Origin: a virus
Strand: one strand, 5' to 3'
Virus genome (UHGV): UHGV-0339891
DNA length: 17,122 bases
In this document: positions 6,661 through 14,478 of the stretch, piece by piece
Numbering within the stretch: position 1 is the first letter of the stretch
How the letters are laid out: each line of letters starts with the position of its first letter
The notes under the pieces: generated by a model
Told to the model about the DNA's origin: nothing
Seen by the model: the letters and a program-made list of their open reading frames with translations, nothing else
Database searches by the model: none
Translations under genes and position numbers: made by a program

Positions 6661-6695
6661 GAAAAGAAAACCCGGCGCTGAGGCCGGGTGTTTTT
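6661..6695. terminator. Bidirectional intrinsic terminator ending the cI operon
   Basis: Stem CCCGGC/GCCGGG (6671-6676 / 6683-6688) flanked by TGTTTTT on plus and TTTTCTTTTC on minus. Confidence 0.55.
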
Positions 6696-6990
6696 AGTCT
6701 TTTCTTTTGCTTAGCATTTCGTCGATTTCTAAGTCAATACGATATTGATCTATTGCTTTTCTCTCGTTTGGGGTTGGTATTTTATACTGTTCAATTAGAT
6801 CTGTTGTGTATTTTATTTCATCTAATGTGATTTTTATATCAGATAGAATCTCTTTTATATCAATTAGATGCTCTTCTTCTTTTGCGCGATTAGAGCTATG
6901 TTCAATCATTTGAGATAGCTTTTTGCTAATGCTTAGCAAAACAAAAAGAATGATGACCAAAACAACAACAAAAACTATCAGAAATTCCAT
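6694..6990 (-). CDS. Small membrane-anchored coiled-coil protein (98 aa), a moron in the rexAB position downstream of cI
   Basis: ORF track; ATG with GGAGG 4 nt upstream; N-terminal TM helix EFLIVFVVVLVIILFVLLSI then a charged helical domain; AT-rich; terminator 6 nt after the stop. Confidence 0.55.
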   Translation of the reverse strand: MEFLIVFVVVLVIILFVLLSISKKLSQMIEHSSNRAKEEEHLIDIKEILSDIKITLDEIKYTTDLIEQYKIPTPNERKAIDQYRIDLEIDEMLSKRKD

Positions 6991-7030: not shown

Positions 7031-7738
7031 TTACCAACTATGAGACGACCAGAATACTCTGCCAATAATCCTTACGGTTTTATGAAATTCATCTCTATCC
7101 ATTACTTCATCCGGGTACTCTTCGCGATTTATTGATCTGATTATCACCGATGTAGGGGTGGCGATTAATGTTTTTACTCGTAACAAATCAGACTGGCAAA
7201 TAGCGTAGGTTTTACCATCTCTGATTGTGGTATCTTGCGTGTTAACACCAACAACATCGCCATCGTGAAGCGTTGGTTCCATGCTTTGCCCTACAACCCT
7301 AACTAGCTTGGCTGATCTTTCAGATACTCCCATCTTTTTCAGATAGTGCTTTCTGAAAACCAAAGAGAACTCCGATGATTCCTCTAGCTCGCAGCTACCG
7401 CTTCCAGCTGAAAGCGAAACGTTAAGAAGAGGCAACGCAACAAACTCGTCATCGTTTCTTTTAATGTCTTCCCATACCACAGCTTTTAAAGATGACTCAC
7501 GGACATTGGATGGTTCTTCATGTGCACCATCCCTCATTTCACCAATACCAGAACTAAGCCATTCAGGACGCACTTTTAAAGCATTGGCTAATTCAACCAT
7601 CTTGCGAGATCCGTTTGTTTTACCGGACGACATCTTCTGTATGGCTGGCTGAGATATTCCAACCATGTCAGCAAGCTGTGATTGTGATACCCCTGCTGAG
7701 CTCATGGCTGCATTTAGTCTTTCTGCGAATGTTTTCAT
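7031..7738 (-). CDS. cI: cI-type prophage repressor (HTH plus LexA-like S24 peptidase domain)
   Basis: ORF track 7031..7768 (TTG); ATG at 7738 (MKTFAERL); HTH segment QSQLADMVGISQPAIQKM; Ala-Gly site in LSAGSG; Ser in GQSMEP and Lys in LLRVKTL. Confidence 0.8.
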   Translation of the reverse strand: MKTFAERLNAAMSSAGVSQSQLADMVGISQPAIQKMSSGKTNGSRKMVELANALKVRPEWLSSGIGEMRDGAHEEPSNVRESSLKAVVWEDIKRNDDEFVALPLLNVSLSAGSGSCELEESSEFSLVFRKHYLKKMGVSERSAKLVRVVGQSMEPTLHDGDVVGVNTQDTTIRDGKTYAICQSDLLRVKTLIATPTSVIIRSINREEYPDEVMDRDEFHKTVRIIGRVFWSSHSW

Positions 7739-7745
7739 ACCCACA

Positions 7746-7816
7746 AATCTATAACTACGGTTATCCAAAGTAAAATAACAAAGGTTATTGCTATTTTTTA
7801 TAACTTGAGTTATCTT
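7746..7816. promoter_or_regulatory. OR region: three operators with divergent pRM and pR
   Basis: Operators ATAACTACGGTTAT 7751-7764, ATAACAAAGGTTAT 7775-7788, ATAACTTGAGTTAT 7800-7813; pR -35 TTGCTA 7788-7793, 17 bp, -10 TATCTT 7811-7816; pRM (minus) -35 TTTACT 7769-7774, 17 bp, -10 TAGATT 7746-7751, giving a near-leaderless cI. Confidence 0.6.
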
Positions 7817-7849
7817 TGGTTATAAGTAATGACCACAAGAGGTATGCTC

Positions 7850-8074
7850 ATGAATTTAGTAATTCAACGAGCCTTGAAAATTGTCGGTAGCCAAAAGCGT
7901 CTTGCCGACAAGTGTGGTGTAACGCAGCCAGCAGTACACAAATGGCTGAAAGGCGGGTTGGTCTCTCCAGAGAAAGTTACCGCCATCGTTAACGCCACTG
8001 GAGGGCAGATCAAGGCTTACGAAATTCGCCCCGATTTGCCACACCTGTTTCCAAAACCGAATCAGGCAGCATAA
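7850..8074 (+). CDS. cro: Cro-like repressor (74 aa from MNLVIQ)
   Basis: ORF track 7829..8074; preferred ATG 7850 with AAGAGG 7 nt upstream; HTH-like segment QKRLADKCGVTQPAVHKW; first gene right of OR. Confidence 0.65.
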   Translation: MNLVIQRALKIVGSQKRLADKCGVTQPAVHKWLKGGLVSPEKVTAIVNATGGQIKAYEIRPDLPHLFPKPNQAA

Positions 8075-8081
8075 GTAACAC

Positions 8082-8126
8082 CGCTCTTTAACAGTCATGG
8101 TCCTCATTCCCGCCGAAATGCGGGAA
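8082..8126 (+). promoter_or_regulatory. nutR (boxA CGCTCTTTAA plus boxB hairpin)
   Basis: CGCTCTTTAA 8082-8091, 15-nt spacer, hairpin TTCCCGC-CGAAAT-GCGGGAA 8107-8126, identical to the nutL boxB. Confidence 0.6.
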
Positions 8127-8132
8127 TACAAC

Positions 8133-8167
8133 GCGCATAAGTTGATGCGCATAACTTCTTATTTGTT
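8133..8167 (+). terminator. Possible tR1-like terminator/pause hairpin
   Basis: Hairpin GCGCAT-AAGTTG-ATGCGC followed by a T-rich tract between nutR and cII; tail is weak. Confidence 0.3.
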
Positions 8168-8183
8168 AAGGAAATACTTACAT

Positions 8184-8462
8184 ATGCAACTTACAAGTAC
8201 TCGCAAGAAAGCGAATGCAATTACAAGCAACATCCTGAATCGAATTGCTGTACGTGGTCAGCGAAAGGTTGCCGACGCGTTAGGGATTAATGAATCGCAA
8301 ATTTCGCGATGGAAAGATAGCTTCATCCCAAAAATGGGAATGCTTCTGGCTGTTCTTGAATGGGGTGTTGAAGACGAGGAGTTGGCGGAACTGGCTAAGC
8401 AAGTAGCCAGAATGCTGACAAAAGAAAAAGCCCCGAAGAACGGCGAATTCTTCGAGGCCTGA
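8184..8462 (+). CDS. cII: cII-like transcriptional activator (92 aa)
   Basis: ATG 8184 with AAGGAAA upstream; SQISRWKDSFIPKMGMLLAVLEWGV matches lambda CII SQISRWKRDWIPKFSMLLAVLEWGV (recalled). Confidence 0.75.
   Translation: MQLTSTRKKANAITSNILNRIAVRGQRKVADALGINESQISRWKDSFIPKMGMLLAVLEWGVEDEELAELAKQVARMLTKEKAPKNGEFFEA
8421..8458 (-). terminator. Minus-strand intrinsic terminator inside the 3' end of cII (OOP-like antisense RNA terminator)
   Basis: Minus-strand hairpin CCUCGAAGAA-UUCGCCG-UUCUUCGGGG followed by CUUUUUCUUUU; no T-run on the plus strand. Confidence 0.45.
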
Positions 8463-8644
8463 TGTAGAAAGACTGGATCAATCCACAGGAGTAATTATGA
8501 CAAAACGTCGTAAGAAATACCAGGAAAAAGAAGAGATTCGACACCCTGATTCACCTGAGGGATTAGTGGTAGCCGCAGCAAATAACAGGGTGTTCGCAGA
8601 GCGCCTTGTTGGTGTTTACAGACTAGCCAAAGCAGGAGTGAAAC

Positions 8645-9557
8645 ATGGGCGTCGTTAAGTTAGCTGATTACAGGCATAACCCTGTACAACATCAGGAGGC
8701 ATCCAGTATGGGGTATGTCTCTATACACCGCCAGTTTATGGACAGCAGTCTCTATAAGGACTCTCAGGCAGTACATCTTTGGCTTCACTTAATCCTCAAG
8801 GCTAATCACGAATCTACTGTCGTCAATACGGATATCGGTCCGATAACTGTTGATCGCGGTCAGATGATAACTGGACGCCCGTCGCTGGTCAGAGAAACAT
8901 TCATCCCCGACAACAAAGTTCGGAGCTTATTACGGACTTTTGAGTCGAAGGGGATGCTTAATATTTGCTCGATGGGGAAGAAATTTAGCCTGTTTACAAT
9001 CGTTAAATATGACGATTTTCAGGCAAAAAATTGTCCAACGGTTGTCCAACGGTTGTCCAACGGTTGTCCAACGGTTGTCCAACGCAAACACCAGTAATGG
9101 CGCGGCTCTCAGCGGAGATTGTCCAACGGTTGTCCAACGGTTGTCCATAAACAATAATATAAATAATATCTCTAATACTGACGTATTAGAGAGTGCCACA
9201 GCAGACAAAAAGTCTGACAAGAAAAAACCTTCCGTCAGCTGTCAGGATGTTGTCGATGCTTACCACGAAATCCTTCCTGAAGCGCCAAGAATCCGCGCAC
9301 TGAATGACAAGCGTAAAAACCAGATCCGAACGTTCTGGCGCAAAGCCGGAGTGATAACCCGCCAGCTTGACGGGCATGGGTTCACGATGCAGGACTGGAG
9401 AAATTATTTGAGCTACGTAGGCGAAAATTGCCGATGGATGTTCGAAGAACGCCCAAACCATCAACGCGGAACCGTCTGGCACAAAAAGGGATTTGACTTC
9501 CTGCTTAACGACAATACCTACCTGAAAGTTCGTGAGGGTGAACACGATGACCGATAA
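8645..9557 (+). pseudogene. O-like replication initiator, reading frame split inside its iteron array
   Basis: N-terminal frame 8645..9097 (alternative start 8707) and C-terminal frame 8940..9557 are offset by +1 and overlap across the 11-bp repeats; C-terminal stop overlaps the helicase start. Confidence 0.55.
9031..9150. repeat. Origin of replication: TTGTCCAACGG iterons followed by an AT-rich tract
   Basis: Five tandem 11-bp copies at 9031-9085, a 33-bp spacer, about three further copies at 9119-9150, then an AT-rich tract at about 9151-9180; embedded in the O-like gene as ori is in lambda O. Confidence 0.7.
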
Positions 9558-10983
9558 TTTTTATGCGCCGCCCCATAGCATCGAGGCAGAGCAGGCGGTT
9601 ATTGGTGGATTGCTTCTGGATGATGACAGCAGTGAGCGCGTCCGGAAAGTTCTGGCGATGCTGAAGCCTGATTCATTTTACAGCCGACCACACAAAATCC
9701 TTTTCGAAGAAATAACCAGAATGCACCGGGAGCAAAAGCCAGTAGATGGGCTGACGCTTTTCGATGAACTGGAGCGCAAATCGTTAACGGCGTCTGTTGG
9801 CGGTTTTGCTTATATCGCTGAGATCGCAAAGAACACGCCAAGCGCAGCAAACATCGTTGCCTATGCAATGCAGGTTCGTGAAACCGCAATGGAACGCTAC
9901 GCCATCAACCGCATGACTGAAGCGACGGAATTGCTCTATTCCCGCAACGGAATGACTGCAACGCAGAAGTACGAAGCTATTCAGGCGATTTTCACGCAAC
10001 TGACAGACCATGCAAAAACCGGATCGCGTAGCGGCCTTCGCTCATTTGGCGAGGTCATGGAAGACTGGGTTAGCGACCTTGAGAAGCGATTTGACCCGTC
10101 AGGCGAACAACGAGGAATGAGCACAGGGATCCCATCGCTGGACAGGATGCTGTCACCGAAAGGTCTGGTGAAAGGCTCTCTGTTTGTCATTGGCGCTCGC
10201 CCTAAGATGGGGAAAACGACGCTATACAGCCAGATGGCAATCAACTGCGCAGTTCATGAGAAAAAGCCCGCTCTGATGTTCAGCCTTGAAATGCCAGGTG
10301 ACCAGATACTGGAAAAACTGGTAGGGCAGAAGTCAGGTGTTAACCCAAATATTTTTTACCTTCCGGCGACAAATGACGCCGATGACGGCTATCAGGGTGA
10401 TTACGATGGTGACTTCACCAGGGCGATCGAAACAGCCAATCGCTTGAGTGAAATCGACCTGCTTTACATCGACGACACGCCGGGATTATCTCTGGCTCAA
10501 ATCGTCAGCGAAAGCCGTCGAATCAAGCGAGAAAAAGGATGTGTTGGCATGATTCTGGTCGATTACCTGACACTAATGACCGCTGAAAAGGCCGATCGTA
10601 ACGACCTTGCTTACGGCATGATCACCAAAGGACTGAAGAACCTTGCCAAAGAGCTTGATTGCGTTGTTGTGCTTCTGACGCAGCTTAACCGCGCACTGGA
10701 AAGCCGAACCAATAAACGCCCATTACCAAGTGACTCACGAGATACAGGGCAGATTGAACAGGATTGCGATTATTGGGTGGGGATCCATCGTGAAGGTGCT
10801 TTTGATGACAGTGTTCCACCTGGTGAAACCGAACTAATCCTTCGTCTCAATCGTCATGGCAATACCGGCACGGTGTATTGCATTCAGGCAAATGGCGCTA
10901 TTTATGACACAGACCAACAGTCTGCTGAAATGCGCCGCCGTGAACGCGAGGAACCGCAGTCCAAGAAGAAAGGAGGATTCTGA
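9547..10983 (+). CDS. DnaB-family replicative DNA helicase (P22 gene 12 type)
   Basis: ORF track 9532..10983 (GTG); ATG 9547 with GAGGGTG upstream; DnaB-like N-terminus HSIEAEQAVIGGLLLD and Walker A GARPKMGKTT. Confidence 0.85.
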   Translation: MTDNFYAPPHSIEAEQAVIGGLLLDDDSSERVRKVLAMLKPDSFYSRPHKILFEEITRMHREQKPVDGLTLFDELERKSLTASVGGFAYIAEIAKNTPSAANIVAYAMQVRETAMERYAINRMTEATELLYSRNGMTATQKYEAIQAIFTQLTDHAKTGSRSGLRSFGEVMEDWVSDLEKRFDPSGEQRGMSTGIPSLDRMLSPKGLVKGSLFVIGARPKMGKTTLYSQMAINCAVHEKKPALMFSLEMPGDQILEKLVGQKSGVNPNIFYLPATNDADDGYQGDYDGDFTRAIETANRLSEIDLLYIDDTPGLSLAQIVSESRRIKREKGCVGMILVDYLTLMTAEKADRNDLAYGMITKGLKNLAKELDCVVVLLTQLNRALESRTNKRPLPSDSRDTGQIEQDCDYWVGIHREGAFDDSVPPGETELILRLNRHGNTGTVYCIQANGAIYDTDQQSAEMRRREREEPQSKKKGGF

Positions 10984-11011: not shown

Positions 11012-11044
11012 AGGCCTGCTGGTAATCGCAGGCCTTTTTATTTG
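11012..11044 (+). terminator. Intrinsic terminator after the helicase gene (tR2-like position)
   Basis: Stem AGGCCTGC/GCAGGCCT with 8-nt loop followed by TTTTTATTT. Confidence 0.5.
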
Positions 11045-13771: not shown

Positions 13772-13956
13772 ACGCCACAATTCAAACGATACCAGAGCTT
13801 CTTATCCAGACACGAGGCAATCAGACCGAAGTGGCGAGGATGCTTTCCTGCGCAAGAGGAACAGTGCTCAAGTACAACCGAGACAGCAAAGGCGAGCGTC
13901 ATGTAATAGTTAACGGCGTCCTGATGGTCAAACAGGGCAAGAGGGGAAGACGATGA
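13768..13956 (+). CDS. ninH: NinH-like protein
   Basis: ORF track; TIPELLIQTRGNQTEVARMLSCARGTV resembles lambda NinH (recalled). Confidence 0.55.
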   Translation: MNATIQTIPELLIQTRGNQTEVARMLSCARGTVLKYNRDSKGERHVIVNGVLMVKQGKRGRR

Positions 13957-14471
13957 GCATAAGAGAACTAAATCTCACCAAAGAGCAGCACGAGTGGCTG
14001 AATGGCTGGCTTGAACTGTGGGGCGCATGGGTTTATTCAGGTCGTCTGGAAAAGCGCATGAGCAGCGTAATAGCGAAGTTCATGGAGAGCGTAGAGCCGG
14101 GAAGAGTTATGACAAGGCCAATGTGCAATGATGATGATGGAATGTTGATTTCTCAGGTCGTCGATTCCGTCATGTACATTGACAAAAAAGCCTTTGGGAT
14201 CCTCCTCAGCTACTACGCTCATGGTTCATCTAAGCGAGCAATTGCATCCTACTATCACGCGACTGCAAAGCCACGCAAGATGTGTGGACGTGGTGGCGAG
14301 GGATGGAGAAAACCTTCACTGGCAACCTGTAGAAACGAAATTGACGACATCCTGAAAGCGTCGTTATTTGTTTTGTACCAACCAATGCAAAATGCTTTCA
14401 AAATGCGTAAACGTGTTGAGAAAGTTAAGCATGTTGCTGTTAAAAGCCTTGACATGCAATTAGCCATTTAG
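13953..14471 (+). CDS. Q: Q-like late-gene antiterminator (phage 21/82-type Q family)
   Basis: ORF track; last gene before pR' and the lysis cassette; LELWGAWVYSG and CNDDDGMLISQVVD motifs resemble 21-type Q (recalled). Confidence 0.65.
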   Translation: MSIRELNLTKEQHEWLNGWLELWGAWVYSGRLEKRMSSVIAKFMESVEPGRVMTRPMCNDDDGMLISQVVDSVMYIDKKAFGILLSYYAHGSSKRAIASYYHATAKPRKMCGRGGEGWRKPSLATCRNEIDDILKASLFVLYQPMQNAFKMRKRVEKVKHVAVKSLDMQLAI

Positions 14472-14478
14472 CCATAAT
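14449..14478 (+). promoter_or_regulatory. pR'-like late promoter
   Basis: -35 TTGACA 14449-14454, 18-bp spacer, -10 CATAAT 14473-14478, inside the 3' end of Q. Confidence 0.5.

Follow-up and report, generated by a model that had tools for sequence, protein, structure and literature searches.

The sequence data indicate that positions 8421-8486 of the virus genome stretch UHGV-0339891, the whole 17,122 nt of which are here called the window, very probably constitute the oop gene of a mosaic P22/HK620-like lambdoid phage, whose expression at this locus is predicted. Specifically, leftward transcription would begin near G8486 at pO, a minus-strand promoter whose extended -10 covers the start codon of the gene next downstream of cII. 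The transcript would cross the 24-nt intergenic spacer, enter the 3' end of cII and stop at the terminator tO within the last 11 codons. The product would be an RNA of 63-66 nt, made up of a 5'-terminal stem-loop and the terminator hairpin.

Setting and features of the predicted oop gene

The locus lies in a lambdoid immunity and replication module (7031-10983) with the gene order cI-cro-nutR-cII-(small ORF)-O-helicase, in which the O-like initiator carries 11-bp ori repeats and the helicase is of the DnaB type. The protein product of the cII homologue is 85% identical to P22 C1 and 51% identical to lambda CII, and homologous E. coli genes bear the RefSeq name 'lambda phage CII family protein'. 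Across 8100-8700 the nearest phage is mEpX2 (99.3%), and the top matches of the full window are mosaic P22/HK620-like E. coli phages, at ~95% over 44-58% of its length. The features to which the analysis refers are these:

7031-7768, minus strand: cI-like repressor.
7829-8074: cro.
8082-8127, plus strand: nutR, with boxA CGCTCTTTAACA at 8082-8093 and a TTCCCGC/GCGGGAA hairpin.
8184..8462, plus strand: cII/P22-c1 homologue (92 aa; ATG at 8184, stop at 8460-8462), the putative antisense target.
8420..8460, minus strand: intrinsic terminator tO, with stem 8460-8447 paired to 8441-8428, loop UCGCC, then a U-run to 8420.
8421..8486, minus strand: predicted OOP RNA of 66 nt, its 5' end placed at G8486 by homology with the lambda +1.
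8464..8486, minus strand: 5' stem-loop I (GUGGA...UCUAC) in MFE folds, wholly intergenic, its stem starting from the first RNA nucleotide.
8488->8473, minus strand: LexA-box-like motif CTGTGGATTGATCCAG, overlapping the predicted +1 and containing a GATC Dam site at 8476-8479.
8488-8492, plus strand: Shine-Dalgarno AGGAG of the small ORF, read from the sequence.
8502->8494, minus strand: extended -10 of pO, TGTCATAAT, identical to lambda pO, with TGT preceding CATAAT.
8517..8523, minus strand: weak candidate -35 of pO, either TGGTAT (2/6, 17-bp spacer) or CTGGTA (3/6, 18-bp spacer).
8497-8658, plus strand: small downstream ORF of 53 aa (ATG 8497-8499), DUF2740 / HK97 gp53 / P22 orf48-like.

The initial annotation had started from a strong hairpin with a U-run, said to exist on the minus strand only and to lie in the last codons of cII, and both statements are borne out. 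The tO stem (8460->8428) has 14 pairs, 6 of them G-C, around a 5-nt loop, and it falls within the last 11 codons of the cII homologue. The U-run reads UUUUUCUUUU when counted from the last G-C pair of the stem, leaves the tail TTTCTTTTGT past the stem and overlaps the last stem pairs (TTTTTCTTTT, 8429->8420); the plus strand has no such run. As an isolated 33-nt hairpin, tO reaches -19.5 kcal/mol on the minus strand versus -12.6 kcal/mol for the plus-strand version. No other hairpin followed by a T-run ranks as high on either strand of the 17-kb window, the next-best site reaching -15.9 kcal/mol. The RNA from 8486 to 8419 folds at -27.2 kcal/mol (z = -5.6), with none of 200 shuffles as good; the corresponding plus-strand fold (-17.9 kcal/mol, z = -3.1) contains internal mismatches and is without a U-run.

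The possible minus-strand -10, CATAAT, had likewise been pointed out correctly, although its coordinates are 8494-8499 and not 8495-8500, one base off, and although it stands near the hairpin at 34 nt from the base and not at 40. This hexamer is the complement of ATTATG (8494-8499) and so covers the ATG of the small ORF, pO being located in the 5' end of the DUF2740 small ORF. A simple sigma-70 consensus promoter scan of the window does not call pO, because its -35 is weak; this -35 is among the weakest in 40 upstream contexts. Lambda oop starts at the G seven nt after CATAAT, the counterpart of which in the window is G8486, and a start at this position is further supported by a 5' stem that begins at nt 1. 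Homology with lambda gives a predicted length of 66 nt and the ends determined by RNA-seq in P22 give 63 nt, in agreement with the ~65 nt first proposed. An RNA running from 8486 to 8421 overlaps the last 42 nt of cII (8421-8462, stop codon included), and its duplex with the message would end 2 nt short of the Shine-Dalgarno sequence of the small ORF.

The LexA-like box has a counterpart at the matching position in lambda, CTGTTGATAGATCCAG. A LexA site is stated to lie in lambda oop-pO (PMC5869508), and its location was deduced from this statement together with the motif, the position of the site not being given in Hayes 2013. Within the window, the LexA pattern occurs twice against 0.69 expected occurrences, a count that by itself is not significant because 47 of 200 shuffles equal it. 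LexA control of the window oop is a plausible prediction from the motif.

Several further observations concern the window beyond the oop locus. The O-like replication initiator is split between two ORFs that overlap in different reading frames (8645-9097, 150 aa; 8940-9557, 205 aa), intact O homologues being 891 bp long. At 9031-9052 the window carries a 22-bp insertion that is absent from its closest relatives and amounts to two additional copies of the 11-bp ori unit TTGTCCAACGG. The window holds 4.9 + 2.6 copies of this unit; among 34 related loci, two runs of two full copies are found in 25 and four copies in none. The insertion may reflect either a true expansion of the iterons, with inactivation of O, or an error of assembly. 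The top sigma-70-like site of the window, TTGACA-18-CATAAT (11/12), lies at 14449-14478 on the plus strand, where it spans the end of ORF 13953-14471; were this ORF to encode a Q-type antiterminator, the site would be well placed for a late promoter (pR'). Finally, a terminator-like hairpin on the plus strand (11012-11035) directly follows the helicase gene, and a bidirectional GC-rich hairpin with T-runs on both strands (6670-6689) adjoins ORF 6694-6990.

Conservation and covariation across cII loci

The comparative analysis covers 176 cII loci drawn from annotated phages, two IMG/VR scans and one GTDB scan. The first viral contig scan returned only cII copies that are 98-100% identical, a diversity insufficient for covariation; the later additions came from an alignment query headed by a divergent cII of Lonsdalea and from the GTDB scan, which extended to Rahnella, Enterobacter, Tatumella, Yersinia, Dryocola, Pantoea and Lonsdalea. 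The set contains 88 unique 145-nt segments around the cII stop, 87 of which are usable (L180 was mis-anchored and dropped). Distinct promoter contexts could be anchored in 43 cases, and one segment, L169, could not be anchored.

Conservation of the hairpin had been set beforehand as the test that could refute the proposal, and the hairpin proves to be both conserved and covarying. An automatic scan of the 87 usable segments detects a minus-strand T-rich run just within the 3' end of cII in 86 of them; in the Tatumella variant L091 the run is degenerate, CCCTTTCATTT. Directly 5' of the run lies a GC-rich inverted repeat, the folding of which was confirmed for 22 variants. Covariation was assessed on a codon-anchored alignment of 29 distinct sequences, in which 91.6% of cells pair, compared with 75.0 +/- 1.4% after shuffling. 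The covariation score reaches 0.446 versus 0.163 in shuffles, with 0 of 500 as high, and it drops to 0.03-0.12 when the 3' partners are slid; changes on both sides occur in 8 of the 12 terminator pairs. About 49 terminator cells are G-U, which is A-C on the plus strand, versus about 8 of the reverse kind. This excess fits the minus strand only, so the selected structure is that of the minus-strand RNA. The encoded CII tails change along with the stems (APKNGEFFEA, PQDCGNSFEA, APGCLEHFEA, APSCSNSIDA and TPSCGNSFDA), and the U-run of tO corresponds to the conserved T-K-E-K codons of cII.

The 5' stem-loop shows a comparable pattern outside coding sequence. RNAalifold on the full-length RNAs does not recover the 5' stem, because MAFFT leaves this variable part out of register, and per-sequence folds with fixed-geometry shuffles were used in its place. 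In MFE folds, nearly all of 22 variants, lambda included, adopt the two-hairpin fold with the first stem starting from nt 1. A terminal stem of at least 5 bp at the predicted +1 is present in 19 of 28 distinct 5' segments, whereas the fixed-geometry shuffles give an expectation of 1.18. The stem is built from about ten distinct sequences, including GUGGA/UCUAC, GUGAA/UUCGC, GUAUG/CAUAC, GUACG/CGUGC and GUAAU/AUUAC, and since this stretch is intergenic, coding offers no explanation for it.

The promoter is equally well preserved. A -10-like hexamer with A2 and T6 stands at a distance from CCTGT that is constant within one base in all 43 anchored contexts. It is CATAAT in 33 of them, and it becomes TATAAT, TAAAAT, TAGAAT or TATTAT exactly where the downstream ATG is shifted by 2-4 nt. 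The -10 is thus kept despite displacement of the ATG, which indicates that it is more than a start codon. Among the 40 upstream contexts, agreement with TTGACA rises to a sharp maximum at a 17-bp spacer (mean 3.18 versus ~1.5 at other spacers), and 19 of the 40 have a -35 score of at least 4/6.

Of 41 distinct 5' regions, 32 preserve the LexA-like box in the form CTGT-N8-[AC]CAG; in the Rahnella variant the spacer is altered and the box reads CTGT-N8-ACAG. Conservation of both the -10 and the CTGT half of the box has in part another cause, as these elements share sequence with the start codon and the Shine-Dalgarno of the small ORF. Variation at the box takes several forms. In Sf6/HK620-type variants, CCCGT disrupts the left half-site. 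Four IMG/VR loci (L102, L103, L104 and L106) have the GATCCAGT block replaced by ...GACRTAACACAGTGTG... and are without the CTGT-N8-CAG box; this subgroup may differ in its operator or in its 5' structure. Still other 5' palindromes are found in L165/L166 and L168.

Proposed antisense action and alternative readings

The available data are compatible with a model in which OOP acts on the pR message. The predicted RNA would be perfectly complementary to this message from 2 nt upstream of the Shine-Dalgarno sequence to 42 nt inside cII, a complementarity given by construction. The mechanism of lambda OOP is described in PMC5869508, PMC12197685 and PMC3985674. Lambda oop on cII-oop-pO plasmid constructs suppresses CII activities (PMC5869508), and RNase III-dependent cleavage of the cII-O message with reduced CII activity is known from lambda only (Krinke & Wulff 1987, 1990, as cited in PMC5869508). 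According to the same account, the known lambda RNase III cuts fall outside cII and the efficiency of secondary decay is not reported. By analogy, the duplex formed in the present phage would be cut by RNase III, thereby lowering cII expression and favouring lysis, and the LexA-box-like site over the +1 suggests that the RNA would rise in SOS induction. Convergent transcription from pO may also damp pR transcription toward the origin. Transcription of the window element, its cleavage by RNase III, its effect on cII and its control by LexA are what we infer from these parallels.

It is conceivable, although on the whole improbable, that pO serves chiefly to interfere with transcription from pR and to tune replication initiation, with the RNA itself being secondary. 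Such a role draws on lambda, in which pO activity reduces pR-driven transcription and a pO- mutation impairs both phage and plasmid replication (PMC3985674), and in the window too pO sits at the entry to the replication genes. However, interference is compatible with antisense action and leaves the selection for a 5'-terminal stem-loop unexplained, and the suppression of CII activities by the lambda plasmid constructs also weighs against a secondary RNA.

A second alternative, which is unlikely, ascribes the conservation of block 8464-8502 to recombination between phage modules, with the block serving as a mosaic 'boundary sequence', and not to promoter or RNA function. The Sf6 record indeed marks the homologous intergenic stretch as 'bsq5; boundary sequence'. 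Phage L shares the last 15 cII codons and the oop unit (8415-8506) with the window at 99%, its cII being 57% identical in protein. BTP1 matches these codons and the unit at 97% (89/92 bases) despite 57% protein identity in the remaining cII, and the unit is attached to at least five unrelated downstream sequences. P22, with a cII 85% identical to that of the window, nevertheless carries a different terminator allele. Sharing of the unit among differing cII and downstream parts, together with the bsq5 label, implies that the oop unit is also a module junction. Yet a junction kept by recombination accounts for identity between phages and not for the compensatory changes in divergent variants, and those from Rahnella, Enterobacter, Lonsdalea, Yersinia and Pantoea retain the -10, the 5' stem and the terminator in different sequence. 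The boundary reading is moreover compatible with an oop gene, since it concerns why the block is conserved and not how it acts. As a separate observation, mosaic joints coincide with the edges of the unit (8415-8506, as seen against L007, L088 and L006).

Tentatively, and with somewhat less than even confidence, the oop unit (pO, LexA box, 5' stem-loop and tO) may be an independently exchanged module whose terminator dictates the C-terminal tail of CII, such that compensatory changes force replacements in the tail while the U-run fixes the T-K-E-K codons. In lambda, the tail of CII is the part that signals proteolysis. If the proposal is true, the evolution of the CII tail would be driven by RNA structure on the opposite strand, and the oop block would double as a recombination 'boundary sequence' by which immunity and replication modules are shuffled.

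The oop reading also has to be weighed against a terminator that merely insulates pRE, cro and cI from stray leftward transcription out of the replication region, with no functional promoter-driven small RNA. A terminator at this site would indeed shield the immunity region as well, and the weak -35 of the window and the silent consensus scan point the same way. Nevertheless, this possibility is very slight, given a -10 that keeps a near-constant distance independently of the ATG, a -35 signal that peaks at spacer 17 across variants, a stem-loop that begins at the exact predicted +1 in 19 of 28 variants, and the discrete 63-nt RNA detected in P22 alongside the OOP annotated in BTP1. Hardly credible, lastly, is a plus-strand role of the inverted repeat, for example in stabilising the cII mRNA at its 3' end or in processing that mRNA, or the origin of the repeat as a by-product of CII tail coding: the hairpin does lie within coding sequence and the plus strand also beats its shuffles, but both versions were rejected because that strand is without a U-run, has a hairpin weaker by 7 kcal/mol and turns many conserved G-U pairs into A-C mismatches, and because the stems covary while the encoded tail changes, so that pairing is preserved and the peptide is not.

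Annotation status and relation to known OOP RNAs

Searched at the gathering score, Rfam gives no match in the window, nor at the lambda or P22 oop loci; since these two known loci give no match, Rfam 15 is evidently without an OOP family, and the negative result for the window is uninformative. In e-value mode, 8350-8560 returns sub-threshold chance matches only, for example ctRNA_p42d and sX13. The missing family also explains why genome records are without OOP annotation. Of 5,426 complete E. coli genomes, 935 carry the oop unit; among the E. coli matches listed the flanking proteins only are annotated, RNA annotation of the unit being absent. The comparative set assembled here could seed an OOP covariance model, for which it is suited because it combines covariation in both hairpins, an ATG-independent -10 and the LexA-like box.

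In P22, record BK000583 places 'oop; similar to phage lambda' on a minus-strand promoter and terminator at the homologous site. A 2026 small-RNA-seq study (PMC13397905) reports P22C-oop as a 63-nt minus-strand RNA (AF217253 14,024-14,086), at 653 and 1513 RPM in infected samples and 0 in uninfected ones; for P22 oop, the study refers to Backhaus & Petri 1984. A gap-free BLAST alignment carries the ends of P22C-oop to window positions 8483 and 8421. The two RNAs are identical over the first 33 nt and equal in architecture and length, and differ in the upper terminator stem, GAAGAAU/GUUCUUC in the window versus AAAACUG/CAGUCUU in P22. The difference amounts to about five compensatory pair changes with the register shifted by one, and the CII tails read APKNGEFFEA and PQDCGNSFEA, respectively.

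For BTP1, OOP(BTP1) is annotated from transcriptome data as an ncRNA antisense to the cII 3' end by Owen et al. 2020 (PMC7067206); the main-text passages and two supplementary files give no coordinates for it. From nt 4 through the last base of the U-run the two transcribed sequences agree completely, nt 3 being G in the window versus U in BTP1, and the downstream ORF is a different one. Phage L, Sf6 and HK620 also have this allele.

The likeness to lambda OOP proposed by the initial annotation extends to all sequence-level oop features, which are found at homologous positions. In the promoter and start region, aligned by eye since MAFFT misaligned it, the window (TTTGTCATAATtACTCCTGTgGATtGATCCAGT) and lambda (TTTGTCATAATgACTCCTGTtGATaGATCCAGT) match at 28 of 31 bases. 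Position and orientation agree, with a start just left of the first replication-module gene and a terminator in the 3' end of cII. So do the extended TGn -10 TTTGTCATAAT with 7 nt to the G at +1, the CTGT-N8-CCAG LexA-like box over the +1, the GATC and the two-hairpin fold. Lambda OOP has 77 nt and the window RNA 63-66 nt, the overlap with cII is 42 nt in the window versus 52 nt reported for lambda, and past nt 14 the two sequences are unrelated, so that stem-loop I and the terminator stem differ from those of lambda. The -35 is TGGTAT/CTGGTA in the window versus TTGAGT in lambda, and the gene downstream is the small DUF2740 ORF in the window and O itself in lambda. Among antisense regulators that act on the choice between lysis and lysogeny, OOP is a classic case; the same RNA has been described in lambda, P22 and BTP1, and the window copy is therefore an ordinary one that brings nothing new in kind.
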